Assembly (NCBI GenBank): GCA_963706795.1
Contig: OY970170.1
Span: 780,001-812,000, forward strand
Reading direction: 5' to 3'
From: Candidatus Saccharimonadota bacterium
GTDB taxonomy: Bacteria > Patescibacteriota > Gracilibacteria > BD1-5 > UBA2023
DNA: 32,000 nt
In this document: one piece after another, positions 1 to 32,000 of the stretch
Numbering within the stretch: the first letter of the stretch is position 1
How the letters are laid out: each line of letters begins with the position of its first letter
Made by a program: the position numbers and the translations under genes
Notes under the pieces: model-generated
What the model saw: only the letters and a program-made list of their open reading frames with translations
What the model was told of the DNA's origin: nothing
Database searches by the model: none

Positions 1-3000
1 TCCGAAGACTTTATTTGAATGGTTCTCGAGTTACTCAAGACAGAGGATGTACAAAAAATAGCGCAAGCAAAGAGTCTATTTGAGGAGCAAAGGATTTTTA
101 GTCAGTATGTAAATCCGAATCTTGCTGCAGATATCGCACAGGCCTTTTTAAAGCTTGGATGGTTCAATAATGCTTTTGGTTTTTACCGAATGGCTCTCCG
201 CATCGATGCGGAGGAAGTGGCGGAACTTCTCGATACAATGATCGATACCTTCCTCGATATTAGTGAGTTTGATCTTACGCCAGATGAGCTTGCTCATAAA
301 CCTCGTTTTGCGCAAGCTCAGCAAGAAATCATCGAAAAAATTCTGGCGAGAGCCAACGGTAATCTATTGGAGACCTATGGTTCTCGGATTTTTGTGACGA
401 TTGGCCGCATATATGAGAATTTTCTTGATTCTCCACTTAAAGCACAAGAGTATTTTAAGCATGGTGTGGAGCTTGGCGAGTGATATGCATATTTTTTACT
501 CTGAATTTCCTATGGAAATCAGAAGAATTATGCTGAAGCGATCCGAATTCATGAGCTTGGATGGCAAAAACATCAAGATCAGAATTGCCTTACATTGCTG
601 GTACGTGAATATTTATTTAAGGGTGATAGAGTTCGCGCGATGCATGCGTATGAGCTTCTTGTTTCTGCTATGAGGATATCAGGGAGGAAACTTCGTAATG
701 TTTTTCCTCTGCTGACGAGTGAAAGACTGTATCTTGATTCTGACTACTTAGCGATTCAAAGACATGCATCTGAGTCAGGAGAAACCATCGGGGGTATACA
801 GCGGATGCAGGCGCTTGAGTCCATTAAAGAAATGACCGAGCCGTTTATCGATACCCTAGAAACCCATGAGTTCAAGCTCGCACTCCATCAAATGGGCGCG
901 ATTGAATTGAACGATGTAGACAATGCGAGAGAATATATTGAGATGATTGCACATATTTTAGAGCTCTGAGATGAGTGAAAAACATGGCTCTGCAATTACT
1001 TTGAAACCTATGCTTCGCCGCTCGCTCTTAGAGTGTATACTGCCAAGGAAGAGGAAGAAGACAAGCAAAAAAATGTACAGAAAAAGGACGAATCAACCGA
1101 TGTAAAACCTCCTCAGGGTATGGTGCGAGCTCGTCTTGTTGAGCGTGTGCCGCAGGTGCAGACACAGGTGAGTATGCTGACAGATCAAGTTATACAAACC
1201 CCAGAAGATACGACTGAGCGCTACTCATTGCAAGAATATCTCGCTATGCACCTGGGATACATACAAGATCTTTGCTGGTTTGATGAGGATCTCGACTTAC
1301 TTGAGGCAATGGAAGTAATCCACGATCAGTGCTTCCTGCGTGATCAGGATACATATGGAGAAAATTCTATTGATGCGATTTCGGCATTTCAGCAGCATGA
1401 ACGAATTGCATATGCGACTCAAAAATATGATACCTTCCCAGAAAATTTAAAAATAGCCTACCGAAAAGCTATCGAAGAAATCGATGAAAAATATGGTAAA
1501 TCTTTTAGACGTCTCCATGTAAAACAGATCATTACTGAGGGTGAGACATATCCACTAGAAGAAGAATTTTTTTATCTCTTCTTAGAATGTTCGTTGCTCT
1601 GAGTGAACGAGGGGATTGCAAAAAGTCTCTCTGACTTGCTTCTTACCTCTCATTTCTCACAGGTAAATCAAAAGGCACTTGCGCAGGCATTCCACGAGTT
1701 TCCTGATACCATAGAGGACGAGAGACTGATAGATCACTTCCTTGAGGTTGGACTTGATGATATTGATGCACTGAAGGCACTTGTGACGATTGCCTCGGAG
1801 GATGAAAGTGAAGAAACAATCGGTAAAAATGCAGAATACCTTCGAGCGTGTCTTGTAGAACTTGGTCATCTCAGGCCAAAATCTTCGAAAAATTGGCTCT
1901 CGAGTTTTATAAAGAAGCACACAAATTGACTTCGTGCTCTCCATCCTGAATACAGCAAAGAACTTGATCATGTCATGATCGAAGCTTACAAGCATGATGA
2001 ATTATTTGACGCTGCCAAATGCATCTGTCTTCTTACTTGTGAGCAAGATCCAGAAATGTTTCGACAACTTGGATTGCTCGATGAGCTGACGGGAGACAAT
2101 GAATCCGCACTTCAGTGCTTTGAAAAAGTCTGGCAAGAGCATCATCTTGAGTCTGTGATCCCTGATCTGATGTTTATCTCAGCTGAATTAGGACATTGGC
2201 AAGAGCTCATTCATTGGTATGCGATCTGAAAACATATCGAAGTTCCAAATATCGATGCAGAGTTTGCAAATACAGCAACCATCGCGATAGCATGGAACGT
2301 CCTTACTGAAGAAGATGAAACAAGCCATAAAGAAGAGCAAGTAGAGTGACTTCGTCCAATATCTGCGGATCAAGCAAAGGTCGTCCAACTGGGGTATGAA
2401 GTTCTAGGCAATATTCTCGATAGTCAGGCAGGACCAGATTATAGGATGGCATCCGGAGAGGAATTCGGAGCATATTTGAGCCTTTCGTGCTGGATTTCCG
2501 AAGGAAGAGATGCTTGAGAATTTAAAGTCACTGCTTCCGAAAAACTCAGACATCTGAGATTTTTCCTCATGGAAGATGATGAAGCTGTTCATAAAATGCC
2601 AGAGTATTGGGAATGACTCTATCAGTTGTTACAAAGTAATAATCTAGGCATTTGGAGGGAGGTTTTTGAGTACTATGATAAACTGTTTGAAAGAAATCTC
2701 GCTGATGTAGCGCAAAATGACACGCATGATGAAGTAAACAAGAGTTACATGTATGCTGCAGTGTGTGAAGATATAGCGGATTTCATTAAAGTGATCCGAT
2801 CCCCTGAGTCTAAATGTCACGAGCAGACAGCAATAAAAACATATGCAACGATCGGAAAGATCTGTTTTTATATATTTGGCGATGCAATCGAGGCTAAAAA
2901 ATACTATGAGCTTGCCTGAGATGCTCAAAAAATGATAACGATGGAGGAAGTGATTGCCCATGATAATGATCATTCACTTCCTGTTTCGCGATACCTCCAC

Positions 3001-3003
3001 TAA
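1..3003 (+). CDS. Very large TPR/Sel1-like helical-repeat protein, at least 1000 aa. The 5' end may lie upstream of the window; an in-window ATG exists at 19.
   Basis: Track ORFs 19-483, 595-969, 1033-1602, 1603-1929, 1975-2229 and 2626-2919 are all in frame 1. They are separated only by TGA codons. The first TAA in that frame is at 3001-3003. TPR-like strings are present, for example GE-G-YAYFLL-G-ISYGNQKNYAEAIRIHE, where TGA sits at the TPR consensus Gly. No signal peptide or TM segment was seen. Confidence 0.6.
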
Positions 3004-3012
3004 GATCCTCCT

Positions 3013-5307
3013 ATGCAACGCCAACCAGATCTAGATCGAGTCATTACACTCGACGAATTTAATTGAGAGTTCCAGTGAGTGCAGAGTCTCATAGCGAATC
3101 AGGCTGCTCAAATAAGCTCATTGATACAGGAGAGTGATGATCAAGAGCTCGAGCATCTTCTCCATGAAAATAGCTCTTTTGAGAGACTGCAGATTATTTT
3201 GCAACGAGAATACAAGCGGGGCAATATTGCGAGTATGCTCGAGAAATGGGAAAAAATTGTAGAGAGTCATCCACAAGTTCAGGTGCATGCGCATCTTGTT
3301 TGAGAATATACTCTCAAACTTGTACAGCAGGCTTCTGCAGAGTGAGAAGTGCACTATAGTTCTTCTGCGCGCGATCGATTACATACCTCGCTCGAGACAC
3401 TTTTTTGACGGGACGAGGCATGAGTCTACGCAGATGGCAAAATACATCTTGAAATTCTACAACTCAAGGCACTTGAGCTTGCTGATTTTGAGAGTGCTAA
3501 ACAGTATGTTGCCACCATCAAAAAGTATCTTGAAAACCAAGAGGGCGTGGAGTTGCTTCGTGAACACTTTAGAGTGTTTTCGTCGCAGCTCGCATTGTAT
3601 CTTACTCGTCCGGATGAGCCAGTGGATGATTTTACATTGGCCAGTGCGGATGTGGATGATTCTGAGGATTTTTGTATGCTGATTTTATCTCATATCTCTG
3701 CTACATCGGGCAGATTCTATGATCATACTGCGAGAGCCATCTACGCCGACCTTGTGGATATCGGAAACATATTCCAAAATGAACGCTTCATAACAGCAGC
3801 TCATCAAAAACTGCAGCTTAGTGCCGCTATTCAAGAAACGCTTGATCAAGGAGGTGAAGAATTCGCTCGGTTTTATGAGCATGTAAAGAATGTGGCTGGC
3901 ATTACAATGGATTCAGCTCAAAATAGGGATATTGTTTTTGCAGAAATCGTTGCCAAGCAAAGCATAGTAAAGAGCGAAAAATTCGGCTCTTCGATGAGAC
4001 TTTTTGTTATGATGAATGCTCTCCTCTGCGGCTGTCCCCCAGAAATCACCGAATGAGTTCTTGATATGTGCTCAGCACGAGACTACACCAAAGAAGAATG
4101 CAAATTTATCGGACTATTCCTGCTCTCGCAAAGCCGAGATGCGGATGCTCTATATTACCTCGGTCAAGCAAATCTCTCGGATATGGAGGTCTTTTCTGCG
4201 CTTATGGACATACTGCGCAATAATATGGGCTTAGTCGACGTGCTGATGCAAGAAATTCTCCCGACTCGCAATGAGGTTCAGCAGACTGGTAAGATACCAA
4301 ATCTCAGGACTATTGCTCGTAAGTTTGTACGAATAACTAAAGACGCTGAGCCATCGGTTCAGAGTGATGCTCTCGTGCTTCTCGGGCAGACATATTTTTT
4401 TACATGAGAGAATGCCAAGGCTGAGGCATACCTTACTGAGGCTGCAAATATGGGGAATGTCTTGGCTCAAGAATGGATGATCAGTAATCACTCACATGAA
4501 TTCTGATCTACTTCCATGGAATCTCGAGTGCAAAAACTCTACGATCAGACCAAAAACCCAAAATACCTCTTTGACCTTGCGTCTCACGAGCTTGCAGTCG
4601 GTAATAGAGATCGTGTCATGGGATATTTGGAGCATTTGGATCACCATCAAAATCTCGATTATTTACGGCTCTACGTAGAGTATTTTTCTACGGGTACATT
4701 TGCCGACAAAATGGCCCTCCTGGGCGATCTTCATAGGATGAAGCCCGAAACTCGAAAGAGTATGAATCCAGCTGTGCTCCAAACTTATCTGAACTTTACA
4801 ACCGAGCAGCTCTCTGAGTTTGATGCTCGATGAAAAATCTTGCCTAAAGAAGTGAGTGATTATCTCTGGCTTGCTACGGGTCAGGCTATTCTCTCGCCCA
4901 ATCCTGACAAAGCGGTAGAGTATTTTGAGCGAATAAGAGCTCTCTTACTCCGCGAAGATGAAGCGGTCTATCTTGCAATGCTCCAGACATTTATAGGTAT
5001 GCAGTCAGGTGATATGACGAATGAGGCATTTATTTTTCGAGATACAAAATATGCGATGCTTGCATATCTCACAGAAGCTATCACTACAGAAGCACGAGCA
5101 TATTTTGAATGCTTCAGTGAACATCCTGATCTCTATATGCTCACGAATGCTATTGCATGGACTTTTCGTGATGGATGCAAAGATATACCGTTGGCAGATG
5201 AGTGGTTTGTGGAGACGCGTGAAAACATGAAAAATTTTAGTCCTTCTGATCGCATAGAATACTACCTCGCCCTGCAAAATACAGGTATTCCTGGCAAGCT
5301 TCACTAA
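3013..5307 (+). CDS. Large TPR/Sel1-like helical-repeat protein, 764 aa
   Basis: The ATG at 3013 lies 9 nt after the upstream TAA. Frame-1 fragments 3079-3303, 3547-4056, 4066-4407, 4516-4833 and 4840-5307 join through TGA codons only. The gene ends at TAA 5305-5307. A Sel1-like string is present: LLGQTYFFT-G-ENAKAEAYLTEAANMGNVLAQEWM. Confidence 0.6.
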
Positions 5308-5390: not shown

Positions 5391-5436
5391 AGACATCCGC
5401 GAAGCGGAGGAAAGGAATATTTTTTCATTTTCTCCT

Positions 5437-7602
5437 ATGATTCCTGGACTTTCGGATCAGAACGTGGTCGACAAACAACCCGTGATTAAGACATATACCA
5501 TTGCTGGTAAAGCTATTACTTTCCAATCTGGAAAGCTCGCTCATCTTGCTGACGGTTCTGCCGTTATTTTAGACGAAGTTGGCAACTATCTCCTCACGAC
5601 CGTTGGCATCAAACAAGAAGCAAATCTCAATGCTTCGTTTTTCCCACTCAGTGTCGAATTTCAAGAAAAATACTACGCCTCTGGAAAGATTGGCGGAAAC
5701 CGCTTTATGAAGCGAGAAGGTCGTCCATCTGAGACGGCGATTCTCAACTCGCGTCTCATCGACCGACCAATTCGGCCAATGTTCCCAAAGGGCGTGCTCA
5801 ACGAAGTACAGATTATCTCTACTATTCTCTCTTCATCCGGAGTTTCTGACTTTGGATTTTGGGGAATTACTGGGGCTTCTCTCTCACTTTTGCTCTCGGG
5901 ATGCGCTCAGTTTGAAGGTCCAGTAGCTGGAGTTCGCATTGCGCTCACTGCTGATGACCAATTTGTGTTCGATCCAACATTTGAGGTGCTCGCCACTGCA
6001 AAGCTCGATCTCACGGTTGCAGGTACCAAAGACGCCATGACCATGGTCGAATCTCAGGCCTACGAAATTGAGGACACTGTTATGCTTCGTGCTTTTGAAT
6101 TTGCACATGCTGCGATCAAAGAGCTCTGTAATGCTCAAGAAGATTTCGTACGCGTCTATCTCCAGACTCACGCCCTTCCAAGTATTGTGCTTACTTGTAA
6201 GCAAGACAACGAAGAACTCAAAAACCGCATTTTTGATATCGTTACAGATGAGGAAATCAAGCCACTTTTCGGTACAGGAAAGATGGAATTTCATCACCAA
6301 CTTCATCTCCTCGAGGAGCGTGTTCTGGGAGTTCTCGGATATGACGAGGCAGCAGAATCTAACGAAGTTTCGCCTTCTGAAGTTGCAGAATATGTCTATG
6401 GTGCAGTAAAACACCACATGCGCCGCAAGGTTCTTGTTGAAAAAATCCGTCTCGATGGTCGCAAACTCGACGAGGTTCGTCCAGTTCGGTCTGAGGCCGG
6501 ACTCCTTCCTCGAACACATGGCTCAGTTCTCTTTGAACGTGGAGTTACGCAAGCACTCTCGATCACAACTCTCGGAGGTCCTGGTGACATCCAGATCGTT
6601 GATGATATGTTCGAAGAAAACACTAAGCGCTACATCCATCACTACAATTTTCCTCCGTTTTCGGTGGGAGAAGTGAAGCCACTTCGTGGAGTGAGCAGAC
6701 GTGAAATCGGTCATGGACGACTCGCCGAAAAGGCTGTCGAGGTCGTGCTCCCATCACTTGCAGAATTCCCATATTTTATCCGCGTAGTTTCTGAAATTAC
6801 GACGTGTAACGGATCATCTTCGATGGCGTCGATCTGTGGATCAACGCTCTCACTCATGGACGCTGGAGTTCCGATTAAGGCTATGGTTGCTGGTGTCGCC
6901 ATGGGTATGATCTTCGACGAAGAAACACGACAATACGAAATCCTCTCAGATATCCAGGCACAAGAAGACTTCCTCGGAGATCTCGATTTTAAGGTTGCAG
7001 GAACAGATCGTGGACTCACAGCGCTTCAGATGGACTGTAAGATCGCAGGTCTTCCACTTGAGGTTATTGCACGAGTTTTTGCTCAAGCAAAGGGTGCGCT
7101 TGGATATATCTCTGGTGAAATGAAAAAAACCCTCGCTGTTCCAAGACCAAATCTCTCTCCTTACGCGCCATTTATACTCTCAGTATTCGTACCTGAGGCC
7201 AAGATGCGCGAAGTTATCGGAAAGGGTGGAGAGACGATCCAGGGAATCGAAAAGGATTTCGGTGTCCAGGTCAATCTCGAGGATGACGGGCAGTGTTCAA
7301 TCACAGCCAAAGATCAGGCCTCCGGTCAGGCAGCACTTGCCTTTATCAAGGGTATTCTCAAAGATGACGAAGTTGGAGATATGCTCCATGGAAAGATCGT
7401 CAAAATCCTCGATGGTGTCGGCGCAATCGTTGAATGGGCGAAGGGAAAATCAGGAATGATGCATATCTCAAAACTCGGAGTTACTGAGCGTGTTGAAGAC
7501 ATCAATAAATACGTCCAAGTTGGCCAAGAAGTCGATGTAAAAATCATCGCCGTCGACAAAGAAAAAGGACGCGTCGGACTCGAAAGAATCATCAGTAAAT
7601 AG
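5437..7602 (+). CDS. pnp: Polyribonucleotide nucleotidyltransferase (PNPase). An alternative start at 5380 would add 19 aa.
   Basis: Uninterrupted 740-aa ORF with two RNase PH-like domains and C-terminal KH (VIGKGGETIQGIE) and S1 (GKIVKILDGVGAIVEW) domains. TAG stop at 7600-7602. The 5380 ATG sits in a hairpin loop, so 5437 is preferred. Confidence 0.95.
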   Translation: MIPGLSDQNVVDKQPVIKTYTIAGKAITFQSGKLAHLADGSAVILDEVGNYLLTTVGIKQEANLNASFFPLSVEFQEKYYASGKIGGNRFMKREGRPSETAILNSRLIDRPIRPMFPKGVLNEVQIISTILSSSGVSDFGFWGITGASLSLLLSGCAQFEGPVAGVRIALTADDQFVFDPTFEVLATAKLDLTVAGTKDAMTMVESQAYEIEDTVMLRAFEFAHAAIKELCNAQEDFVRVYLQTHALPSIVLTCKQDNEELKNRIFDIVTDEEIKPLFGTGKMEFHHQLHLLEERVLGVLGYDEAAESNEVSPSEVAEYVYGAVKHHMRRKVLVEKIRLDGRKLDEVRPVRSEAGLLPRTHGSVLFERGVTQALSITTLGGPGDIQIVDDMFEENTKRYIHHYNFPPFSVGEVKPLRGVSRREIGHGRLAEKAVEVVLPSLAEFPYFIRVVSEITTCNGSSSMASICGSTLSLMDAGVPIKAMVAGVAMGMIFDEETRQYEILSDIQAQEDFLGDLDFKVAGTDRGLTALQMDCKIAGLPLEVIARVFAQAKGALGYISGEMKKTLAVPRPNLSPYAPFILSVFVPEAKMREVIGKGGETIQGIEKDFGVQVNLEDDGQCSITAKDQASGQAALAFIKGILKDDEVGDMLHGKIVKILDGVGAIVEWAKGKSGMMHISKLGVTERVEDINKYVQVGQEVDVKIIAVDKEKGRVGLERIISK

Positions 7603-7607: not shown

Positions 7608-8171
7608 ATGCCAGCTGATATCATCCCACTCGGTGAACATCGCGATCTCAAGGCTGAAAAAAATCTCGAACAAAGGTTTCGTGATACAAACTTCCAGTAT
7701 CTTGCTGCAGTGGCTGAGATCATAAAAACTCGGGAAATTCTTATTCAGCGCGTGTATGATCTCCTCCCTGTAAAGCCCTCAGTAGTAGATGATTCAGCTC
7801 TTAAAGAAACTCCAAAAGGACTCGAAACAGCGCAGATATATTCACTCAATTCTCGAGTTACTCCGGTAAATCCGCTCACTCAGATACTTCGAATGATCAG
7901 CTTGTGGGACGAAAATATACATCAGTCCATGGATCCAAAACTCAGACTCCCATCCGAAGATCTGGGTCCCGATGAAAATCGCATGAAGCATCTGCTCGTA
8001 CTTGTCGATCAGTGTTCTGCATCGGAGATTGAGGAACTGGCAAAATACCTCAGCAGTGTAAATATTGCTCACGCCTCTCGCACAGTTATTGTGCAAAAAG
8101 CACATCTTCATATCTTGATATCTCAAAAAAGAGAACAATTCCAAAAACTCAATAATGACCAACAAAGATAA
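7608..8171 (+). CDS. Hypothetical protein, 187 aa
   Basis: Intact ORF that starts 6 nt after the pnp stop. It overlaps the next gene by 17 nt and ends in TAA. No recognisable motif. Confidence 0.55.
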   Translation: MPADIIPLGEHRDLKAEKNLEQRFRDTNFQYLAAVAEIIKTREILIQRVYDLLPVKPSVVDDSALKETPKGLETAQIYSLNSRVTPVNPLTQILRMISLWDENIHQSMDPKLRLPSEDLGPDENRMKHLLVLVDQCSASEIEELAKYLSSVNIAHASRTVIVQKAHLHILISQKREQFQKLNNDQQR

Positions 8172-9372
8172 TCTATCGTACTACGCATTTGAACTCGGAC
8201 GCGAGTGGAAGCTCTCACTCGCCGAACTCGAAGCACTTTTTGGAAAAGACGCGATAGAGAAGGTCTCTGAAAAACTCGTATTTTTGCGTACGGGCCGTGA
8301 TGTGCGAAATATGTTCTGGAATATGGGCGGAGTTATCCGCGCATTTCGGATTATTATGCCGCTTCGTGACCTAAAAATGTTCCCGCATCGAGTCACCGAA
8401 ATCCTCGAAAAAACTACAGACGAAGGGAAGATTTCATTTGCACTCGGAGCTATCGGACCAAAAATCCCAGTATTTTCGATGGGGCTTCGTATTAAGAAGG
8501 ATCTCAAGATAAAGGGGAAAAGCATCCGTTTTGCCAATAAAGACGATCGCAATCTCGTCTCTGCAGTCGTAAAAAAAGAGAGTCTCGCGTTCTATGAGCG
8601 AGAGTTTTTTATGCTCGAATGTGCAGGGGAGACGGTACTTGCTGCGACGACAGCAATTCAGGATATCGATGCCTATGCGGCGCGTGATCTCAAAAAAGAG
8701 CGCGATATGGAAGTCGGAATGCTTCCCCCAAAACTTGCTCAGACCATGGTCAATCTTGCACTCGGTCAGAGTGATGTGACGCCTAAAACCGGTCTCTATG
8801 ATCCGTTCTGTGGACTCGGAACTGTCCTTATCGAAGGTGCAAATATGGGTATTACGAAACTTCTTGCGTCAGATATCAGTGCTGAAATGGTGAGCGCTAC
8901 AAAGGTAGGAATCGAACGATTTGCAGAAGCACGAAAACTCCAAATCGATGCCTATGTCATGGGTCTCGATGCAAAAAATATCGCCAATTTCCCTCGACTC
9001 CGAGACGTTACCCACATCGTCAGTGAAGGATATCTTGGAAGCATCTTCTCTCAAGAAACCATCACCAAAGAAAAAGTCGCTGTCGAAAAACGCAATCTCG
9101 TCGTCATCTACGAAAGTATGTTCCGTGGCCTCTGGACTGCTAAATTTGATGGTACGATTGTCATGACGATCCCATGTTGGGGACTCAAAGGAGAATTTAT
9201 GTATTTCACCGAATTTTACGAACTCGTAAAAAAGATGGGATTCGAGATTGATCCGCTTCTCGGTAATTACAAAGAAATCCAACCCACAAAGTACGGAACC
9301 CTCCTCTACCGCCGTCCTGGTCAAACAGTCGGAAGAGAGGTGTGTAGAATTCGAAGGAAGAGCGTTCGATAA
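8155..9372 (+). CDS. Class I SAM-dependent RNA methyltransferase (UPF0020 / THUMP-associated family)
   Basis: 405-aa ORF. The motif LYDPFCGLGTVLIEGANMG matches the DPFCGSGT SAM-binding motif of UPF0020 putative RNA methylases. TAA stop. Confidence 0.75.
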   Translation: MTNKDNLSYYAFELGREWKLSLAELEALFGKDAIEKVSEKLVFLRTGRDVRNMFWNMGGVIRAFRIIMPLRDLKMFPHRVTEILEKTTDEGKISFALGAIGPKIPVFSMGLRIKKDLKIKGKSIRFANKDDRNLVSAVVKKESLAFYEREFFMLECAGETVLAATTAIQDIDAYAARDLKKERDMEVGMLPPKLAQTMVNLALGQSDVTPKTGLYDPFCGLGTVLIEGANMGITKLLASDISAEMVSATKVGIERFAEARKLQIDAYVMGLDAKNIANFPRLRDVTHIVSEGYLGSIFSQETITKEKVAVEKRNLVVIYESMFRGLWTAKFDGTIVMTIPCWGLKGEFMYFTEFYELVKKMGFEIDPLLGNYKEIQPTKYGTLLYRRPGQTVGREVCRIRRKSVR

Positions 9373-9525: not shown

Positions 9526-9612
9526 GCCCAGGTGGTGGAATTGGTAGACACGCAGGTTTCAGATACCTGTAGGAGCAATCCTATGTGGGTTCAAGTCCCA
9601 TCTTGGGCACCA
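9526..9612 (+). tRNA. tRNA-Leu (anticodon CAG), type II with long variable arm and encoded CCA
   Basis: Hand-folded. The acceptor stem GCCCAGG pairs with CTTGGGC. The D-arm is GTGG-AATTGGTAGA-CAC. The anticodon stem is CAGGT/ACCTG with loop TT-CAG-AT. The T-arm is GTGGG-TTCAAGT-CCCAT, followed by discriminator A and CCA. The architecture closely parallels E. coli tRNA-Leu(CAG). Confidence 0.9.
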
Positions 9613-9917: not shown

Positions 9918-10484
9918 ATGAAAACAGCTATGCAGTGCCGCGTAGGTACCGTTGTAAAAATTGGAAACGACCTTATGGTGGTTCTCCGATTCGAAATGCA
10001 CCGCGCAGGACGTGGAGCTACAAATATCAAGCTCCGTCTCAAGAACCTTCTCCAGAAGGGAATGCAGGATAAGATCTTCGATTCTGAAGAAAAGATGGAC
10101 GACGTAACACTCGCTCGTTCAAAATTCGAGTTCCTCTACGAATCAGCTGGAATGTACGCATTTATGGATCAGGAGAGTTTTGAACAGATCGAACTCAGCG
10201 AAGAAGATATCGGAGATGCGAAGTTCTATCTCACAGAAGGACTTATCGTTGATATCCAGAGCTTTGAAGGTCGTCTCGTTGGTGTTATGCTTCCACAAAA
10301 GGTAAAACTCAAAGTTACCGAAGCTGATCCTGCAGTCGCTGGTAACACAGCTGATGGAAAGGTCGACAAGCTCGTAAAGCTCGAAACTGGTCTTGAGCTC
10401 CGAGTTCCAGGATTTATCAATGCTGATGAATACATCATGGTTTCCCCAGAAACTGGAGAATACATGGAGCGCGCGAAGAACTAG
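9918..10484 (+). CDS. efp: Elongation factor P, Arg32 subtype
   Basis: 188 aa counted from ATG 9918; the track begins at a TTG two codons upstream. Collinear with EF-P over its length. The loop tip reads HRAG-R32-GAT instead of the Lys34 loop. TAG stop, followed by a terminator. Confidence 0.95.
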   Translation: MKTAMQCRVGTVVKIGNDLMVVLRFEMHRAGRGATNIKLRLKNLLQKGMQDKIFDSEEKMDDVTLARSKFEFLYESAGMYAFMDQESFEQIELSEEDIGDAKFYLTEGLIVDIQSFEGRLVGVMLPQKVKLKVTEADPAVAGNTADGKVDKLVKLETGLELRVPGFINADEYIMVSPETGEYMERAKN

Positions 10485-10494
10485 TTTCTTCTAT

Positions 10495-10525
10495 AAAAAA
10501 ACACCCGAGATTCGGGTGTTTTTTT
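10495..10525. terminator. Bidirectional rho-independent terminator between efp and the convergent ABC exporter
   Basis: AAAAAA-ACACCCGA-gat-TCGGGTGT-TTTTTT, with an A-run on one side and a T-run on the other. Confidence 0.8.
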
Positions 10526-12464
10526 ATGCCTCCACTTTGGACGTTACACCCTCATTTGAATGCTGGATATCATAGAATTTTGCATATGGATTATCTCAGC
10601 CGATAAGGGATTCATGATTACCAGTGCTCGTGATTTTTCCATCCTCGATGCAATAGATCGTATCGACATGGCGAATCGTCGACATGCGATGAGTGATGAA
10701 AATAATAATCTTTTCGCTTTTTTCTCCCAGGAGCTCTCGCATGATACGAAGCTCGTTTTCGGCATCGAGCTGGTTTGTTCCTTCGTCGAGGATGAGAATG
10801 GGGCGATCTTGGAGTAGTGTACGAATAATCGCAATAAGCTGTCTTTGTCCACCGGAGAGATCGTCATCCCAGCCAATATTATTATCGAGACCGAGTCGGA
10901 GTTTTTGGATCTTGGTTTTGAGTCCGAAGTTATCCAAGAGCTTCCAGAGCTCATCATCGCTGACTGCGCGTTCAACCCCGAGCGTGAGATTTTCACGGAT
11001 CGTGAATCTGCCATTCATAATAAACGGATCCTGGCTGACGTATGAGGCGAGTGAATAGAGTGCATCACGCCTAATTGTTTTACCTTCAATCTTGTTGTAG
11101 CTGATCGTTCCTTCGTAGTTTGAGAAGAATCCAAGGATGAGATTAATGAGCGTCGTTTTGCCTGCACCATTTTTGCCGACGATACCGTAGATATTTCCTT
11201 TTTTAAAACTCAGATTGATGTCATGGAGAATCACGGGGCTTGGGAGCTCGATTTCGGCCTTGAGTTCTTTGAGCATGTGGATCTCATCAAGATCCCAGGT
11301 ATTCATATTTTTGTAGGATTCGATTCGTCGTATTGAGATATCTATGAAGGATTTTTCAGCTTCTGCAGATTTTGGATACTGGAATACGCAATTGCGAATA
11401 CTGATGGATTCTACGGGATGTGAGATACAATTAATCCGCAGTTGATCGCCGTTCTCGGTCATTCCAAGGAAAAGCTCCATTCGAGCGAGATCATCTGCAA
11501 TCTTGTTTTTATCGATCCAAGTACTGAGAATATTATTTACGACCTCTCATATTTGAGAGGTATAGAGCATCGTCATTGTCATAAGACCGATGGATCCAGT
11601 CGAATAGTAAATCGTATATCAGACATACATTTTGATGAGCAATGTAAAGAAATTCTCATTGATGAGTTGCACAATGCTCCAGCTGGCATCACCGAGGACT
11701 TCAGTCTTGCGACTCACTGCGATTTGCTCAAGAATTCCAGCAAATTTTTGCGTAAATGATTTCGTTGCGCCATTGACGACTATGTGATGATATGACCGTT
11801 GTAATGCAGCTTCCATGTTCCATCTGAGAGAAGTGAGCTCATGATTGCTCTTGAGATTAAAGTGTATCATGAACGCATTTTTGTGCTGCTGTATCAAAAA
11901 TGCGAATATCGCAGATACAAATACAAGCAAAAATATTTTGTAATCCGTGAACGAAAATACAAGGAGTACTGAACTCGCCGTAATAAACATCCCAATTTTA
12001 GCGATGGTGAAATCCTCGATTTTGGCGGGCATGTCATTTACGGTACTTCTGGCGCTCTCGATGAGTCTTTGATATCTTGCAGAGAGCGAGTAGCCTGGAT
12101 CCAGAAACTGTGTGCGTTCGGTGACTTCAATGAGGAGACTGTTTTCGAGACGCTTTTTTTCGACTTCGGTTGCGAGTTTGAAGCCGAGATCTATCAGTGC
12201 TTTGAGAAGGTCTGCGATAAATATGATTCCTAAAATGATCAAAAATATTCCATATGGCGTATTCGTGAACATAAAAAATGTCGCGCTTTTTTCGACAAGC
12301 TGGTCCATCTCGAGCTTCACAAGATAGGGGAGTCCTGCCTGGATCAAACGCGCAACAATGGTTGTAATGAGCGCAATGAGGAAGTATCTGCGATGCTTCT
12401 TATAAACGATTTCCCAGATGAATTTTATTGCACGGGAATACTTCTCTCTCAAGCGCACGAACAT
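10524..12464 (-). CDS. ABC exporter, fused permease and ATPase (type I exporter, MsbA-like), 646 aa
   Basis: Track ORFs 11619-12464 (TMD) and 10596-11480 (NBD) share one frame. Three in-frame TGAs join them (11619-11621, 11547-11549, 10596-10598). Walker A is GKNGAGKT, the signature is LSGGQRQ, and Walker B is ILILDE. The C-terminus continues as G-DNPYAKFYDIQ... to TAA (complement of 10524-10526). Confidence 0.9.
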
Positions 12465-19454: not shown

Positions 19455-20775
19455 ATTTACACCCGCGAATCTTCCGATCAAGACACGTTTGGCATTTGCT
19501 TTTGCATGCGTCTCGATCGTGTTTTTGTGTGTATATTCTTTTGTTGTCTATACGGTTTTTGATCGCTATCTTTTGCGAGATGCGACGGATTTGGTGCGGG
19601 CGCAGTATGAGTCGATTCTCTCGGATATCACCTTTGTTGAGGACGAATCTCAGGGAATAGATCTGGCCGAAAAAACCCTCTCACGCATCGATCAGGCCAC
19701 CAATCTTGGGCTTCTTGTTTTTGTATATGACAGCAATGGCGATGCGATTGTTTCACCTTCACCGATCAGTATTCCTATCGGAAAAGAATGAGCATTTGAG
19801 CTCCAAGAATGATCCGAAATCTTCTTTGTATATGGAGGGAAGGTAGAGCAGGGCTCACTTTATGTCGCGCTGAGCAAGGAAGTGAGTGTACAAGAAAAAC
19901 TTGGTCGACTCCTTGGGATTTTAGTCCTTGTCTGACTCGCGTCAGCTTGATTGATCTTTGTTGTGAGTTACTTTTTTTCTCGTAGGGCGCTTCGACCGAT
20001 TGACCGACTCAAGGAATACATTGCTTCTGGTGGAAGTGCTGAACTCCGTTTTGCGAAGGATGAGATCGGATATTTAGCAGAAGAATTCGATCAATATCGT
20101 ACTCGTATCGAGGCCTCGCTTGCGCGAGAACGTGAATTTAGTGCTGATGCGAGTCATGAGCTTCGCACTCCATTAACGGTACTCAGAACCACGCTCGAAC
20201 TGCTCGAATCCAAAAAACAAGATACCGAATCAACATCCAAAATCGCCACTATGAATGAGGCGATTGATGAGATGGAAGACCTCATAAATAAGCTTTTACT
20301 TTTGGAGCGTGGCTTAGCTGATGGCGCCGAATCCTCCATGCAGGTGAGTGATTTCTTCTCTGATTTTCTCACACCCTTTAAGGATATAGCTCACAAAAAA
20401 GATCTCAATATCATCCTCGAAACTCCCAAAAAAGACTTTCTTGTGCGAACGAGCAGAGAGCGTCTGGAACATGTTTTTGGGAATCTCATACGCAATGCTC
20501 TCCACTATACCGAACAGGGGGCTATCACGGTTCGAGTCACTAAAAATCGCGTGGATATTATCGATACCGGAGTTGGAATGTCTCACCAAAACCTCATGCG
20601 AATCTGGGATCGATTTTATCGCAGTGATCGTTCTCGCAATGGTGAAGGAGCCTGACTCGGACTCTCAATTGTAAAACGTCTTGCAGAAGAATCTGGCTGG
20701 ATTTTAGCAGTGAAGTCTGAGCTCGGAGTCGGCTCGACTTTCACAGTTATATTTCCGAATGCTTCCAAGAAATAA
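19438..20775 (+). CDS. Sensor histidine kinase, 445 aa, with two TM segments
   Basis: Frame-1 fragments 19438-19791 and 19951-20655 join through TGAs. The H-box is FSADASHELRTPL and the N-box is NLIRNALHY. The G2 box reads GEGA-(TGA 20653-20655)-LGLSIVKRL. TAA at 20773-20775. It overlaps the response regulator stop by 17 nt. Confidence 0.9.
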
Positions 20776-21697
20776 TGCGATTTTTTTTGGTGAAAAGGAG
20801 CTTTCAGAGCTCTTTTTTTGTTCCGCCGTTTGCTTCGGCTATAAATCTACGGATTTCAGCGATATTGCCTTCTGAGAGTCCAATAGTTGTGTTGTGCACG
20901 ATACGATATATCGTCTCGATAAGGGTATTTTGCTCTAGAAGCGTGAGTGCCAAAAATTCCCATTCATGAAAACTCTCATTATCAAGAAGTCGCGTAATAC
21001 GGGATTCGAGGGTTTCGTGAACCATTTCAGCATATTCCGAAAATGCAGAGAGATTATCACGGAATTGTGGATTAATTGCCTCAATTTCTGGGATAATTTT
21101 ATTGCGGATACGGTTGCGTAAAAATGCCTCAGCGTCATTTGAGCTATCCTCTCGAAAAGCGATTGAATGCTCTGTAGCATAGCTTCGAATCGCTGACTTT
21201 GTGGTATGAATCAGTGGTCGAAGCGTATTGCCACTCAGTTCTGCAATCCCCGTGAGTCCTCAGAGTTTTGAACCACGAAAAAAATTTAATAGAATGGTTT
21301 CTATACTGTCATCTAAATGGTGTCCGAGGATAACAAATCGTGATCCAGTCTGTTTTCGGATGATTTCAAAGGCTTCTTTACGGACAATTCTTCCGGATTC
21401 TTCGAGGCCAATTTTTGCTTCTTTTGCACGGGTGGCAATATCCTCTTTGAGACTTATGCAGAGAATTCAATGTCACTCGCAATAGGTTTTCACAAGTGCT
21501 TCATCGCCGTCACTTTCAGCTCCACGAAGTCAGTGATTAATATGGACCACAGTGATCTGTTTTTTGGCATGTATCTCTGTCAAAATCTGGAGCAGTACCA
21601 TGCTGTCGACTCATCCAGAAACTCCCACAACAATAGGCTCATCAGTGTCAATCTGATGCGTTGTAAATACGTTTTCGATGGTCTGGAGGAGAGTCAT
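20747..21697 (-). CDS. tilS: tRNA(Ile)-lysidine synthase, 316 aa
   Basis: Minus-strand frame read by hand. The PP-loop is VVGVSG-(TGA, complement of 21611-21613)-VDS. LGHHLDDSIETILLNFFRGS follows. At least five in-frame TGAs. The stop is TAA (complement of 20747-20749). The 3' end overlaps the convergent kinase gene by 29 nt. Confidence 0.85.
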
Positions 21698-22151: not shown

Positions 22152-23474
22152 ATGAATAAGCCCATCGAGAACGAACAGCAATTCAAAAAAGTCATCACAG
22201 CACTCGGAGACAAAAGTGGTTCCTCGAGTCATTTTCAGTCTGACAAATTTGATCAGCTCGCCAAGTATGTCCATGAAGCCCTCGAAAAACAGGACTCTGA
22301 TCTGGCACTCACACTCATCACAAAATGAGCACTTTCGCTCGGATCTTCTGATGTCCATTACGATCTCTCCGATGGTCTCACACAGGTACGACTTCGTATT
22401 GATGGTAATCTCGTGACAATTTTTGCGCTCGAACTTCGTCAGTACAAACTGCTTCTTGAACGTCTCAAATACAAATCCGAACTCAAACTCAATATCACCA
22501 ATATTCCACAGGATGGAAAATACCGTATTTTGGATGATGTGAGCCGAATAGACGTTCGTGTTTCGACGCTTCCAGTCAAGAATGGAGAGAATGTGGTATG
22601 TCGTATTTTGGATTCGACAAATGCAATTCCAAAGGTTTCAGATCTTGGATTTATCTGGACTTCAAAGCGTCAGATCGACAAAAGTCTCAAGAAAAAGGCA
22701 GGAATGATCCTTGTAACGGGACCGACTGGATCGGGTAAAACTACTACGCTCTATTCGATCATGCAGGAGCTCAATGTTCCTGAGCACAAGATCATTACCC
22801 TCGAAGATCCCATCGAATACGATCTCCCATGAGTGGTTCAATCCGAGGTAAATGAAAAGAATGGCTATAACTACCATACTGGCCTCAAGGCGCTTCTGCG
22901 TCAGGATCCGGATGTTATTATGATTGGTGAAGTGCGTGATCTCGATACTGCAAATACTGCCGCGCAGGCTTCGCTGACGGGACATCTTGTGCTCTCGACA
23001 CTGCATACCAAGAGTGCTTCTGAGACGCTTGAGCGACTCATGAATATGGGGGTAGCATCATATATTCTTGCCTCGTCTATCGATATCATTATTGCTCAGC
23101 GCCTCGTTCGCAAGCTCTGTCCACACTGTATCGAGTCCTATATCGCCGACGAATCTCAGAGCGAAGTTATCAAATGGATGATGCAAGATATTGGTATCGA
23201 TGCCGTTGCCAAGGCCAATAAAAATGGCTACAAGCTCTATCGTTCGAAGGGATGTGAACACTGTGGTTTTACAGGATATCGCGGTCGACTCGGTATTTAC
23301 GAAGTCCTTCATTTTAATGACGACATTCGCAAACTCATCCGAGATGGCGCAAGTCCCGCACAAATCTTGGTTGAAGCTCGCAAAAACGACCTCATTCTCA
23401 TGCGTGAAGACGGTGTCCTCAAAGCCATGCGTGGTAAAACTTCACTCGAAGAAGTCTTTAGTGTAATTGAATAA
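22152..23474 (+). CDS. pilB: Type IV pilus / type II secretion assembly ATPase (PilB/GspE family), short form of 440 aa
   Basis: Frame 3 from ATG 22152 joins 22413-22832 and 22833-23474 through TGAs at 22326-22328 and 22830-22832. Motifs are SDVHYD...VRLRIDG, Walker A GPTGSGKTTT, the Asp box, Walker B VIMIGEVRD, the His box TGHLVLSTLH, and the tetracysteine CPHC...CEHC. Confidence 0.9.
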
Positions 23475-24468: not shown

Positions 24469-24469
24469 T

Positions 24470-25090: not shown

Positions 25091-25702
25091 ATGAAACACA
25101 TCCTTCTCAGTCTCTGTATGACAGTGCTTCTTGCCTCATGTACGCAGACATCAAATATCGCAACAAATCCTGTAGTAAAACCAGCCGATTCCAGTCTCTT
25201 AGAATCCGCTACTGGTGGACTCAAAGTAGATCTCTCTAAGTCATACCACTACCTCGATAGTGAGAAAAAAGCATATGCAGAGGGTACCTTCGGGGATCTC
25301 ATCTCAAAGACTCCGTACACGATCGTCTATTTTTACCCAAAAGACGGAACTCCAAACTGTACAATCCAGGCGCTCGACTTCTCTCGACTCCAGTCAGAGT
25401 TTGCAAAAGAAGGATATCAAATCCTCGGAGTTTCCAAGGATGACCTTGCTTCCCATAAGGCTTTTGCTGACCGTAACGAACTCAAAATCAAGCTGCTTCA
25501 GGACAAAAATAGTGACTTGCTTGCAGAGTTTTGAGCACTCGGTAAGCTCCAAGAATACGGAAATGGATCAGACAAGTCAGATATTATTCGCTCTACTTTT
25601 ATCATCGACAAATCAGGCGTCATCCAGCATGCCTTCAAGGATATTAAAGCCGTCGGACACGCTGATCGCATCCTCGAACTCATCAAATCTCAAAAGAAAT
25701 AA
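25091..25702 (+). CDS. bcp: Bcp-type peroxiredoxin (thiol peroxidase) with a lipoprotein signal peptide, 203 aa
   Basis: The lipobox is VLLAS-C. The catalytic motif YFYPKDGTPNCT matches the canonical FYPKD.TPGCT. One in-frame TGA (25532-25534) joins to ...STFIIDKSGVIQHAF. TAA at 25700-25702. Confidence 0.8.
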
Positions 25703-25718: not shown

Positions 25719-25749
25719 AAAAAAACCGATAGGCACTATCGGTTTTTTT
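25719..25749. terminator. Bidirectional rho-independent terminator shared by bcp and the convergent GH26-like gene
   Basis: AAAAAA-CCGATAG-gca-CTATCGG-TTTTTTT. The minus-strand gene's TAG lies inside the stem. Confidence 0.75.
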
Positions 25750-26872
25750 GTAGATTTTTTTCTCTCAGAGTGAGTGGCTTTTTGATCGTTTTCCCAGTAC
25801 CAAAAGGAAGATTTTTGGTACTCATTTTTGGATCGCTGAAAAATTCGAGAATGTTGGTATACGCCTTACCGGTTTCGAGCGAGAGAGCTGCCCAATCGAG
25901 TTCTTCTGCGCGACTGCGATCCGTGAGTCACTTCGTGCGATCTCGATTGAAATAGAGGGCTCCGACTATCGTGGGCTCGGATGCTATGGTTTCGTGCATA
26001 TGAGTGAGCCAGAGATTTTTCTTGGTGGTGGTATTTTTGTATTCGTCTTTTGCCTTTTGCTCGGACCATGGTCATTCAAAATCAACTGCGGTCGTTCCGA
26101 CTTCATCTAAAAATATGGGTTTGCCATAGAGTTTGAGGCGCTCAAAGGTCTGCATTTTTGATCCAATGAGTAGGCTTTTAAATGACTGCCACTTTGCCCA
26201 CGAGGCATTTCGGCCGCGTCCCCAGTTGTACATGCTGAGACTCGCCATATCGACATATTCGCTTCCTGGATAAAAATCCTCAAGTGTTTTACAGTGTGTT
26301 TTTTGTTTTGTAGTCTGACTGCAATAGATAATTTTGCCATTTACGACGCCATTTTCAGAGGGGAGATCCTCGATATTTACCGCAAAATTAAAGAGGATGT
26401 TATTGCGATCGAGTCCTGCAGTGCGCGAGAGATTCCAGATACGTTTGTAGGCGATCTGATAATTTTGAGGATCGCCGGACCATGAGAACCAATTGCCATT
26501 CATCTCATGCATGGTGCGAAAGATAAACTTCCCATGGGATTCTTTCATGGTCGCAAAGAGCCTCGAATATGCCACATCAAATTTGCCATCTGCGACTGCT
26601 TTTGCGCTGAGTCCAAGAGGCGAGAGTGTCACATGGTAGATACGATCGACCCCAAGATTTTTGATATTTGCAGAGAGTGTTTTGGCGTCTTCTGTGCTAA
26701 AACTATCAAAAATAAACCCAACAATAGGAGCACGGAAGCTATATTTTTGCTCGAGCGTGGTGATCTCGGAGGCATTGTTGTTTTCGGGATATATTCCAAA
26801 TGCGTAATCTGCGTGGACGCTGCTACAAAGACTGAGCGCGACGAGCAAAAAGATCGTATAGAGTTTTTTCAT
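25736..26872 (-). CDS. Secreted glycoside hydrolase family 26-like protein, 378 aa
   Basis: Signal peptide MKKLYTIFLLVALSLCSSVHA. The motif RTMHEMNGNWFSWSG matches the GH26 HEMNG.WFWWG block. The ORF 26072-26872 extends through two TGAs to TAG (complement of 25736-25738). Confidence 0.75.
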
Positions 26873-26978
26873 GGTGCCAGTATGGCAATTTTTGCACGAC
26901 CCTCAAGAAGTTCTCGTTTTTTTATTTTGTATTTACGTGCCTATCCATACGCTCGAAGACATCTCGTAACTTCCTCCT

Positions 26979-27506: not shown

Positions 27507-27536
27507 AAAAAATCTGGGAATTCCCAGATTTTTTTT
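27505..27536. terminator. Bidirectional terminator (perfect palindrome) between the DUF1003-like gene and the convergent pilin gene
   Basis: AAAAAAAA-TCTGGGAATTCCCAGA-TTTTTTTT. Confidence 0.75.
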
Positions 27537-28323
27537 ATGGTGTGATCGTACAGCCGGTACCGCTTACTCAGCCACTTGCATCAAGTATGAGGTAGGTTCC
27601 AGATCACATACTCAGCCCAGCATCAGCAATTGCTTGGCAGCTTGTATAGTCGCTCGCACTCGGTAAGCTCACTCAGTTTTCTGAGGCTATATCTGTAAAA
27701 AGTGTCGCTTTTGTTACCGCCTTTCCGCTCGTGTCGTATGGAATATTGATACTGCTATTATTTATAATAAAGCTGAGTTGGTTTGTTGCGCCCGCTCCGA
27801 TACCTGGATTTACCTCTAGATCGCTCGTCGTATTTACAGCGAGTAAGAGGCTCGGAAAGATCGATGGCATGAGTGCCAGGTAGTCGCCATCGACATAGGC
27901 TCGTAAAATATTCGCTCATTCTATCGTCATCCCGATTTGGTAACTCTGTCTATTCGTCAGGCTCGAGTACATATACGCCCGAGCAGTCCGAGGATCGATG
28001 CGAAGTTTTGTGCTATTTCCCTTGGTAATGGCATCCGAATTTCCTTGGTAGACGACCGCTACTCCGTTATTTAAAAGCGAGAAATTACTTGCTGGAAGGG
28101 GATAGGAGCCTAGCGTTTGTTTATTGCTACGAAGTTGCGTCTTCATCTCAGCCATGTCCGTTTTGCGTGTACTATTACGTGCATCAACCGCACTATTCGA
28201 AAACGAAACAAATGCGATCGTCGACAAAATTGAGAGCACAAGTATCACTACAATGAGCTCTACGAGCGAAAACCCCGCACAGCTTTGTATCTGCGATCGC
28301 CTTAAAAAAAGAGTTGTTTTCAT
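27535..28323 (-). CDS. Type IV pilin / pseudopilin, 262 aa
   Basis: The class III signal is MKTTLFLRRSQIQSCAG|FSLVELIVVILVLSIL (G-F-S-L-V-E5). Fragments 27916-28341 and 27673-27870 are in one frame and extend through four TGAs to TAA (complement of 27535-27537). A C-terminal Cys pair is present (SCQAI...GTGC). Confidence 0.85.
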
Positions 28324-29159: not shown

Positions 29160-29275
29160 ATACATGCTTTTTATCAAAAATATAGTGGTTTTTACAATAC
29201 AGGAGGTCGGAAAAATTTTACATTCCAAAGAACATATGTGACAATGATATGAGTAAAGTTTACTGCCTCCTTCCC

Positions 29276-32000
29276 ATGAAACACACAAAAAACCTACTTT
29301 CGGCACTTTTGCTCGTAATGTCCGTAATCAGCCCTTCTGTTCAGGCTCTTACGGTGGCTGATGCTGTTAATTCGATGCAGGCTGCGCCTCCTTCGGATCT
29401 CCCATCGGTTGCAAATCCACGAGGGAATATTGGATATATTCTGTCGACTATTTTTTATGGATCGTCGGATGGTGCTCTCAATGGCAAAATCAAACCACAG
29501 TATCTTGATCTCTCTGGAGTATCGAGTGGAGGAGGAACTTCTCAGTGGACTACGACCGGATCTTCGATCTATTATGGATCGACAGTCGGTATCGGTACGA
29601 GCAATCCAAATACTGCATACACACTCGATGTAGCAGGTGGTATCCGTGCTTCAAATGGAATTACGATTACAGCAGGAAGTGTTTCGCTTCCAACGGGTGC
29701 GATCAGCTCAAATGCCATTGCAGACGGATCACTCCTCTTTGCTGACTGGAATCAAAACTGATGTACGGTTGGTCAGATCCCAAAGTGGAATGGCTCTGCA
29801 TGGGCCTGCTCGGGTGACTCGGGTGTTGGATCAGAAACCGATCCTGTTTGGACTGCAGCAATTAATAACTACTACACAAAAACTAATCTCCAGACTTCTG
29901 GTCAGGCAAGCGTAAATTGGGGGAATCTCACGAGCGTTCCTACAGCATCAACAGCCACTTCGGGTATCGTTTTGCTTGTAGATGGAACGGGTTCTACTTC
30001 AACAACGAGTGCTGCGACAGCAAACTCAGTAAAAACTCTCTGGGATAGTATCGTCGGCAAACTTACAGGAAGCGGAACCGTGAATTATATTCCAAAATTT
30101 AACTCGACTGGATCAGTTGCAAACTCACAGATCTTTGATGACGGAACCTATGTTGGAGTCGGAACGCCAACACCTACCGAAAAATTCGAAGTCGCTGGAA
30201 ATATCAAGCTCTCAGGAGGAGTACCTACCTACCGCATTACCAATCTCGCAAGCCCCATTGGTAATGATGATGCTGCGAATAAGGGGTATGTAGATACCAA
30301 GGTTTCTGCAGCGGGAAGTGCAGTCTCAAACAGCTATCTCTCAAACGGATCCTACTATTCAGAAGGAGGATCGCCATATTTTTGTAAGCTCAACACACTC
30401 GCAGGAACGGTCCAAAAGATCACTCCAGTCAATCAGAATCAACTCTGTGATACTGCGTCAAATCTCTATTGTAATGCAGGTCTCTGTAATGCTTCGGCAA
30501 GTACTATTGCCTCTATCCGCAGTAGCAATCAGCTCGTAAGTGCGAAAGATGACAAGTCATGTTCGGTTAATAACGGGCAGGTCTACTGCTGGGGATATAC
30601 TGGAAATGGTCAGAAATATCTCGGTCTCTCGCTTGCGGGTGTAAATGACAGTGGAAACGGACATACATGTGCACTTCTCTGAAATGGTCAGATCAAGTGT
30701 TGGGGAACCAATACTTCTGGTCAGCTTGGGAATGGTACAAATTCAGCCTCGTCTATTCCAGTTTCGGTAAGTGGTATCTCAAATGCTATCAAGGTGGTAA
30801 CAGGAAGCTCGATGTACAGCACCGCCAATGGTATGAGCTGTGCGCTCCTTGCTGATGGAACAATCAAGTGTTGGGGAAATAACGCAGTTGGCCAGCTCGG
30901 CGATACAACTACGACCAATCGAAATACTCCCGTGAGCGTTTCGGGTATCTCAAATGCAATCGATATCGCCATCGGAAATCCAAATGCATCAGCAAGTGCG
31001 ACGGTTTGTGCTGTACTCTCAACAGGTGGAGTAAAGTGCTGGGGATACGGAGGAAATGGTCAGCTCTGAAATGCTGCAAGCTCAAATAGTGCTACACCAG
31101 TAACAGTAAGTAGTCTCACAAATGCACTCCGTATTTATGCATCTGGAGTAGCGGATACCACAAATGGAACAATGTGTGCTCTCATTTCAGACGGTACGAT
31201 AAAGTGCTGGGGTACGCTTCCAGGTGCGAATAGTGCAACGGCTGTGTCTGGTATTACGAATGCAGTTGATCTCTCGATTAGTAACTCGAATGGAAGTTCA
31301 TCTTTTGCTTGTGCAGTCCTCGCAACTGGTTCGATCAAGTGTTGGGGAACAAATGGTTACGGGCAGCTCTGAGATGGAACACAAACAAACTCAGCCACTC
31401 CTGTAACGGTTGCTGGTATCTCAAATGCGCTCAAGGTCTATACCTCTATGAGTGCTGCAGGTACAGCCTATGCCTATGCCTGTGCGCTCCTTGCAGATGG
31501 TACCATCAAATGTTGGGGAAATGAAGTAAGTGGACAATTTGGAGATGGAACAGCCAGTGCTCTCAGACTCACGCCAGTAACAGTAAATGGTATCACGAAT
31601 GCAATTGATCTCTCAATTGCTCAAACTTCTGGATCTGATGGATCATCATTTGCCTGTGCGACACTCGCAAATGGTCAGGTAAAATGTTGGGGAGCTGCTA
31701 GCGTAAATCAGCTTGGATATGCCTCTACGACAACCGCAACGTCGCCAGTAACTGTACAGGGGATTTTTACTGCTCAAAAAGTATTCGTAACAGGAAATTC
31801 ATCATCATCGACAGTTTCACAATGATATGCCTGTGCTATCCTTGCAGAAGGTGGTATCTCATGTTGGGGACAAAATTCTGACGGTCAGCTCGGAGATAAT
31901 ACAACTGCTAACAAGACCACTGCTACACCGGTGTATTCTGCGAATGGTCTCTATTATACGGGTATTGGAAACCTCACTGCTGATAAGATGAGTCCAGAAC
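29276..32000 (+). CDS. Giant secreted surface protein with a tail-fibre-like N-terminal region and at least 9 RCC1 beta-propeller repeats. It is 3' partial, with more than 900 aa inside the window.
   Basis: Frame-2 fragments 29249-29761, 29972-30682, 30794-31069, 31172-31372 and 31448-31825 join through TGAs. The signal peptide is MKHTKNLLSALLLVMSVISPSVQA; an upstream ATG at 29249 is also possible. Fibre-like motifs are VGIGTSNPNTAYTLDVAG, GQIPKWNGSAWAC, ATSGIVLLVDGTGSTSTTSAATANSV and NDDAANKGYVD. The RCC1 unit CALLADGTIKCWG.N..GQLG(TGA)DG is iterated. No stop occurs before position 32000. Confidence 0.85.

Follow-up and report, generated by a model that had tools for sequence, protein, structure and literature searches.

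The window analysed here, a stretch of 32,000 nucleotides from contig OY970170.1 with a GC content of 44%, almost certainly belongs to the chromosome of a Gracilibacteria-type (BD1-5-like) bacterium, an uncultured member of the Patescibacteria, or candidate phyla radiation (CPR), that uses NCBI translation table 25, with UGA encoding glycine. This assignment had been proposed in a previous sequence-only reading of the same DNA, and it is borne out by the lengths of the open reading frames (ORFs), by comparison with solved protein structures, by an internal repeat column of an RCC1-repeat protein and by alignments to related genomes.

ORF lengths were compared by taking, for each reading of the code, a greedy non-overlapping set of stop-to-stop ORFs. 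Table 11 yielded 61 ORFs with a mean length of 166 amino acids (aa), while reading TGA as a sense codon yielded 32 ORFs of 329 aa on average, so that the mean length doubled. In the control readings, in which either TAG or TAA was taken as sense, the mean reached only 180 and 185 aa, respectively, and the gain in ORF length is therefore specific to TGA. The same pattern was found in the two closest relatives (loci L044 and L002) when TGA was read as sense. A similar removal of breaks and doubling of ORF length would be obtained under table 4, in which UGA encodes tryptophan, as in Mycoplasmatales, some insect endosymbionts and some Eggerthellaceae, and which is the commoner reassignment of UGA in bacteria (PMC4032931, PMC8629427).

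The gene models were refined by reading the six frames in combination with a Pfam scan. Five reverse-strand ORFs of the greedy TGA-sense set (9885-10490, 22098-23768, 23769-24164, 24209-25072 and 15975-16913) proved to be antisense artefacts and were replaced; the real genes lying under the first, the second and the fourth of them are efp, the gene of the PilB/GspE ATPase and two small plus-strand genes. The refined set comprises 29 gene models, a small extra gene (23532-23897) and a tRNA-Leu(CAG) gene, and brings the coding density of the window to 93%. About 30 genes were thus reconstructed, instead of the roughly 33 counted before. The 29 models contain 9,911 codons, including 63 in-frame TGAs spread over 16 genes, which table 11 splits into 79 fragments. 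The previous statement that most genes are broken into two to eight pieces holds as far as the breakage is concerned, but 16 of about 30 genes is a bare majority and the pieces number from 2 to 13, two TPR-like proteins carrying 12 and 10 TGAs. As had also been stated, every break is a TGA (63/63), with no TAA or TAG interruption.

All complete models end in TAA (21) or TAG (7). The absence of TGA stops, noted in the sequence-only reading, is partly circular as an argument, because TAA and TAG delimited the ORFs. Independently of this delimitation, the gene products extend to the normal C-termini of their homologues, and about 55 full-length Gracilibacteria-type polynucleotide phosphorylase (PNPase) ORFs run to TAA or TAG with no TGA before it, L019 being the one ambiguous case.

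Continuous Pfam matches cross from one to five TGAs per domain. Specifically, the PP-loop match of TilS (residues 22-199) is uninterrupted over five TGAs, the RsmB/F match (residues 110-307) over three and the T2SSE match (residues 54-436) over two, and the HATPase_c, RNase III, EarP and RCC1 matches also cross TGAs. The TGA-bearing genes include the following (coordinates in the window, strand, product):

1..3003, plus strand: gene for a large TPR-like helical protein, its 5' end lying outside the window; 12 TGAs in frame; stop TAA.
3013..5307, plus strand: second large protein with helical repeats; 10 TGAs in frame; stop TAA.
10524..12464, minus strand: ABC transporter, permease and ATPase fused; three TGAs (11619-21, 11547-49 and 10596-98).
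12939..13937, minus strand: EarP, the EF-P arginine rhamnosyltransferase; three TGAs, of which 13233-13235 is the glycine of VRGE(D/N)S and is also TGA in the relative L044.
13992..14930, plus strand: RsmF/RsmB-type rRNA m5C methyltransferase; four TGAs, of which 14388-90, 14562-64 and 14892-94 are Gly in 3-4/4 PDB homologues.
15786..16517, plus strand: RNase III (rnc); TGA 15963-15965 is the glycine of the signature ERLEFLGD and is GGA in L044.
Predicted RNase III peptide across this UGA-encoded glycine: contains LEYLGDAVLELITTEYLFHAFPDK.
18777..19454, plus strand: OmpR-family response regulator; TGA 19281-83 is Gly in 2/3 distinct PDB homologues.
19438..20775, plus strand: sensor histidine kinase; five TGAs, of which 20653-20655 is a G2-box glycine, Gly in 3/3 PDB homologues.
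20747..21697, minus strand: tRNA(Ile)-lysidine synthase TilS; six TGAs, of which 21611-21613 is the second glycine of the PP-loop SGGxDS, Gly in 4/4 homologues.
22152..23474, plus strand: type II/IV secretion ATPase (PilB/GspE); two TGAs, of which 22830-32 is Gly in 3/3 GspE structures.
25091..25702, plus strand: Bcp-type peroxiredoxin; one TGA (25532-34) at a variable position, Asp in the closest PDB homologues.
25736..26872, minus strand: GH26-like glycoside hydrolase; two TGAs.
27535..28323, minus strand: type IV pilin-like protein with N-terminal methylation motif; four TGAs.
29249..32000, plus strand: RCC1-repeat surface protein, its gene continuing beyond the window at the 3' end; five TGAs, of which 31067-69 and 31370-72 lie in the GQL-G column.

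The window is syntenic with its closest relative, L044, over efp, earP, rsmF, nusB, rnc, rpmH, rnpA and yidC, and the PNPases of the two are 87% identical. By comparing the two loci downstream of the first TGA of each gene, we counted 85 synonymous and 29 non-synonymous codon differences in rnc, and 76 synonymous and 61 non-synonymous ones in rsmF. In addition, three window TGAs occur at the identical codon in L044 or L002, in proteins that are just 50-60% identical between the species; in the L044 orthologues GGN is found at four window TGA sites and TGA is common to both at two. These data bear on the possibility of gene decay, that is, of TGAs arising as nonsense mutations in pseudogenes, in a degenerating genome or through poor assembly. 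In a public collection, the table-11 calls for this DNA do resemble fragmented genes; however, the interruptions consist of TGA only, no frameshift is present within the domain-spanning homology and the essential single-copy genes tilS, rnc and rsmF are among those affected. Pseudogenes are ruled out by the largely synonymous change 3' of the TGAs, together with the TGAs shared at identical codons. In agreement with the sequence-only reading, which had also rejected decay, its probability is vanishingly small, and we conclude that translation must proceed past UGA.

The identity of the residue at UGA was assessed by tabulating the TGA columns against PDB homologues; phmmer alignments to solved structures made 18 TGA positions comparable. 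Nine of these 18 are occupied mostly by glycine and none by tryptophan (binomial P ~2e-6 at a 7.5% background). They are the second glycine of SGGxDS in TilS, three RsmF positions including DAPCSG-E-G, the ERLEFLGD glycine of RNase III (in all homologues), the G2 box of the histidine kinase, VRGE of EarP (3/3), 'DIDGIGQ' of GspE and the wing of the OmpR-family regulator. The previous claim that TGA falls on invariant glycines is thereby confirmed, through PDB structures or internal repeats, for RNase III, the m5C methyltransferase, TilS, the kinase G2 box, EarP and RCC1. The six codons that had been located by position are all TGA in the context described: NERLEYLxDAVL (15963-15965), DAPCSAExRIR (14562-14564), VGVSGxVDSM (21611-21613, minus strand), GEGAxLGLSIV (20653-20655), GQLxNA (31067-31069) and GQLxDG (31370-31372). 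The TPR glycine LL-G-ISY (502-504) is unconfirmed, TPR_8 being matched only below threshold in the Pfam scan of the protein encoded by 1..3003.

The RCC1-repeat protein provides a control that is independent of any database. It contains seven internal repeats with the pattern CWG...GQL-G, the final glycine of which is encoded by GGN in five repeats and by TGA in two.

A Codetta-style likelihood calculation on alignments to relatives, restricted to the refined genes and run on the same alignments, ranked glycine first, with serine 3.0-6.5 and tryptophan 29-68 log-likelihood (lnL) units behind. A first version of this test had wrongly favoured serine and alanine: PNPase, which is highly conserved, had dominated its matrix, and TGAs upstream of the true starts had been included. 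In the reverse comparison, the TGAs of the relatives were aligned to window residues, and 424/561 fell on glycine and 1/561 on tryptophan.

Tryptophan is still encoded by TGG in the window, as had been proposed, since TGG codons align to Trp, and no window TGA is found at a Trp position, either in the PDB homologues or in the relatives. Moreover, some TGA sites are P-loop or G2-box glycines, positions at which tryptophan is structurally implausible, and the lineage is of Gracilibacteria type. Use of table 4 is, accordingly, exceedingly improbable. Selenocysteine was also considered and rejected: of the 56 TGA positions with an alignment to relatives, none is matched by Cys, Rfam finds no SECIS (selenocysteine insertion sequence) in the window, and the 63 sites are distributed over 16 unrelated families. 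The CGA codons of the window (99) align mainly to Arg (226/663 aligned residues), as do the CGG codons (19; 91/148); for neither codon does Trp figure among the six residues aligned most often. In conclusion, the residue at UGA is glycine.

Some observations weigh against this interpretation. At seven of the PDB-aligned TGA sites the homologues have variable residues other than glycine (E, K, D, R, A, P), none of them Trp. The window's own sites, taken alone, separate glycine from serine by just the 3.0-6.5 lnL units reported above, and about 30% of the window TGA sites align to glycine in relatives, compared to 60-75% of the GGN glycines. A tRNA with a UCA anticodon was found neither in the window nor in the additional 7.9 kb of flanking sequence from Logan contigs, and ARAGORN detected none among 60 related loci. 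Finally, the lineage name alone proves nothing, as the NCBI 'Gracilibacteria' also hold lineages that use table 11 (gTranslate preprint); for this reason, the direct evidence from the window outweighs the name.

The flanking sequence derives from three Logan contigs of run ERR12037365 (L067, L068 and L069), which jointly span positions -1473 to 38387 relative to the window, extending it by 1.5 kb on the upstream and 6.4 kb on the downstream side. They carry the window proteins exactly, and L067, the one aligned, is 100% identical to the window. No tRNA of any kind is present in the extra flanks, and an Rfam scan of the window returned the tRNA-Leu only. The gene for release factor 2, prfB, is not in the 32-kb window, the size of which says nothing on the whole genome. 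The longest stretches devoid of a gene model are 14931-15287 (357 nt), 9613-9917 (305 nt) and 23475-23531 (~60 nt), none of which gave an Rfam family match.

The lineage was placed through a PNPase-based scan with one genome per GTDB species, by which 66 loci were retrieved. Metagenome-assembled genomes (MAGs) labelled Candidatus Gracilibacteria, Patescibacteria group or Peribacteria account for about 60 of these, all the close relatives among them, in keeping with the CPR placement previously put forward. The PNPase identity of the Gracilibacteria-type relatives is mostly 57-87%, with a few divergent or partial sequences at ~51-55%, and the next best matches, from Thermotogota and others, stand at 39-44%. 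The best GTDB representative shows 87% identity to the window, the source genome not being a GTDB representative itself. By this identity scan, the nearest 50 or more homologues belong to Gracilibacteria-type MAGs that carry TGA at glycine positions themselves, while the six PNPases of the non-Gracilibacteria outgroup have no in-frame TGA. Therefore, the relatives of this lineage also decode UGA as glycine.

The number of TGAs in the pnp gene of the relatives rises as GC content falls, from 0-9 at 35-59% GC to 28-49 at 21-30% GC. Specifically, the low-GC loci L046, L047, L048, L052 and L062 contain 28-49 TGAs (18 in the partial L062), compared to 0-1 in the loci L001, L005, L006 and L015, at 52-59% GC. 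For high-GC relatives, ORF statistics alone are insufficient to say whether TGA is a sense codon.

Taken together, these data show that UGA serves as a sense codon for glycine, supplying about 10% of the glycine codons of the window, and that termination occurs solely at UAA and UAG, with UGG staying Trp and both CGA and CGG staying Arg. From published knowledge of the clade, UGA would be read by a dedicated tRNA-Gly with anticodon UCA that bears glycine identity elements, and release factor 2 would have been lost, leaving release factor 1 alone to terminate at UAA and UAG.

The change of UGA to glycine (table 25) was reportedly first described in 2013, for SR1/Absconditabacteria by Campbell and for Gracilibacteria by Rinke. 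It was confirmed for BD1-5 (Hanke 2014, PMC4032931) and is covered by a systematic genetic-code screen (Shulgina & Eddy 2021, PMC8629427); in GTDB the recoded lineages correspond to class JAEDAM01, orders BD1-5 and Absconditabacterales (gTranslate preprint). In common with the table 25 of Gracilibacteria (BD1-5/GN02) and Absconditabacteria (SR1), the window has UGA at conserved glycines, TAA and TAG as its only stops and TGG for Trp, and its organism belongs to the Patescibacteria/CPR, its closest relatives being Gracilibacteria-type MAGs with TGA at glycine. There is no difference in kind from these table 25 users, the GC content lying in the upper part of the published range of 21-53%; compared to the relatives at 21-30% GC, where TGA takes the dominant share of the glycine codons, its share in the window is small. 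The extended code of Absconditabacteria, a sister clade, combines UGA to Gly with CGA/CGG to Trp (PMC8629427). The first change is common to both, while in the window CGA and CGG are common and aligned to Arg, so that the second is absent. With table 4 (Mycoplasmatales, Hodgkinia, Zinderia, Nasuia, Stammera and some Eggerthellaceae) the window shares a sense UGA and an expected loss of release factor 2, but it differs in the residue encoded, which is Gly and not Trp.

TGA makes up 9.6% of the window glycine codons and is unevenly distributed. It is absent from yidC, rnpA and nusB, as well as from the following protein-coding genes, listed with the sole tRNA gene of the window:

5437..7602, plus strand: polynucleotide phosphorylase (pnp), used for lineage placement; 65 GGN glycines and no TGA; stop TAG.
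8155..9372, plus strand: RMKL-like (UPF0020) methyltransferase, from Pfam; no TGA.
9526..9612, plus strand: tRNA-Leu(CAG).
9918..10484, plus strand: elongation factor P (efp), from Pfam; no TGA.
16653..16898, plus strand: ribosomal protein L34 (rpmH), with a C-terminal extension of ~37 aa; no TGA.

For pnp the absence (0/65 glycine codons) has a probability of P=0.0014, while in the two large repeat proteins (1-5307) and in tilS TGA accounts for ~25% of the glycine codons. The codons next to the 63 TGAs (for instance those at 481-483, 14310-14312 and 19789-19791) are also biased. Glu (GAA/GAG) precedes TGA in 16/63 cases, compared to 29/592 for GGN (Fisher p=6e-7), CTC precedes it in nine cases, and the following base is G in 30/63 cases, compared to 163/592 for GGN. 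Preferences for Glu and for AAA-Lys before TGA recur in the relatives (12.3% vs 6.1%).

Such patterns raise the question of a dual or context-dependent UGA, read mostly as glycine with some termination, or decoded inefficiently or ambiguously. This would explain the avoidance of core genes and of conserved glycines, the TGA sites being less conserved than the GGN sites, and it would fit with the Glu-TGA codon-pair bias and with the wobble ambiguity of U34 between UGA and UGG noted in the literature (PMC8629427). Against it, no gene model needs a TGA stop, the products reaching their normal C-termini at TAA or TAG, and catalytically critical glycines are encoded by TGA as well. Furthermore, since the low-GC relatives carry 28-49 TGAs inside pnp, the avoidance seen in this gene is not general. 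We consider a dual UGA very unlikely, and hold to UGA as a glycine codon. A milder form of the same idea is that UGA-Gly decoding is context-sensitive, and UGA not a fully equivalent fifth glycine codon, to which the preference for a preceding Glu or Lys, the enrichment of a following G, the avoidance of core genes (presumably strongly expressed ones) and the lesser conservation of the sites point. We advance it only tentatively, as a rather doubtful proposal; to our knowledge, no context-sensitive decoding of UGA as glycine has been reported for table 25.

The Glu-TGA bias is unlikely to stem from avoidance of Shine-Dalgarno-like GAR-GGN sequences, because 26 of the 27 ATG starts examined are preceded by no Shine-Dalgarno motif within 25 nt, and their upstream regions are pyrimidine-rich. 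The same pyrimidine-rich character is found upstream of pnp in ~50 relatives. At three genes the sequence YCTCCT directly abuts the ATG (3007-3015, 5431-5439 and 26973-26981); it has three matches in the window, compared to 0.27 expected, and all three are at predicted starts.

With regard to individual genes, L34 is 81 aa long, and the Pfam L34 match spans residues 6-42 only. Its C-terminal extension is conserved in L044, from which it differs by 10 synonymous codons and one non-synonymous codon, and on the basis of this ratio it appears to be translated. The earP gene lies near efp, and the EF-P loop reads HRAGRGAT, with Arg, in a hand alignment, at the position of E. coli Lys34. Judging from these sequences, EarP and the Arg-loop EF-P would make up an EF-P system of the rhamnosylation type in a CPR bacterium; genes for dTDP-rhamnose synthesis are absent from the window. 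Residues 235-272 of the RCC1-repeat protein form a phage-tail-fibre repeat (Pfam PF03406), and the gene of this protein adjoins that of the pilin-like protein, while in L044 an RCC1/pilin-like ORF (about 18988) is located between rnc and rpmH. The RCC1/pilin-like genes may represent a mobile or variable surface-protein cassette.

The reading of UGA as glycine in the window is already known biology, and its value lies in annotation. The public Logan gene predictions for this DNA were made with table 11: they break the kinase up into fragments of 117 + 230 aa, the PilB ATPase into fragments of 58 + 139 + 213 aa, and the RCC1-repeat protein into at least five pieces. Database entries that rest on these predictions are truncated proteins. 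Table 25 is needed whenever this contig is annotated, or surveyed for its domains or for novelty, as spurious short ORFs and pseudogenes would otherwise result. In conclusion, the window extends a well-documented recoding to a further Gracilibacteria-type lineage, at species level and of intermediate GC content. If context-sensitive reading of UGA were true, it would imply a codon-pair or efficiency constraint on the tRNA-Gly(UCA), or a residual ambiguity with UGG or with termination.

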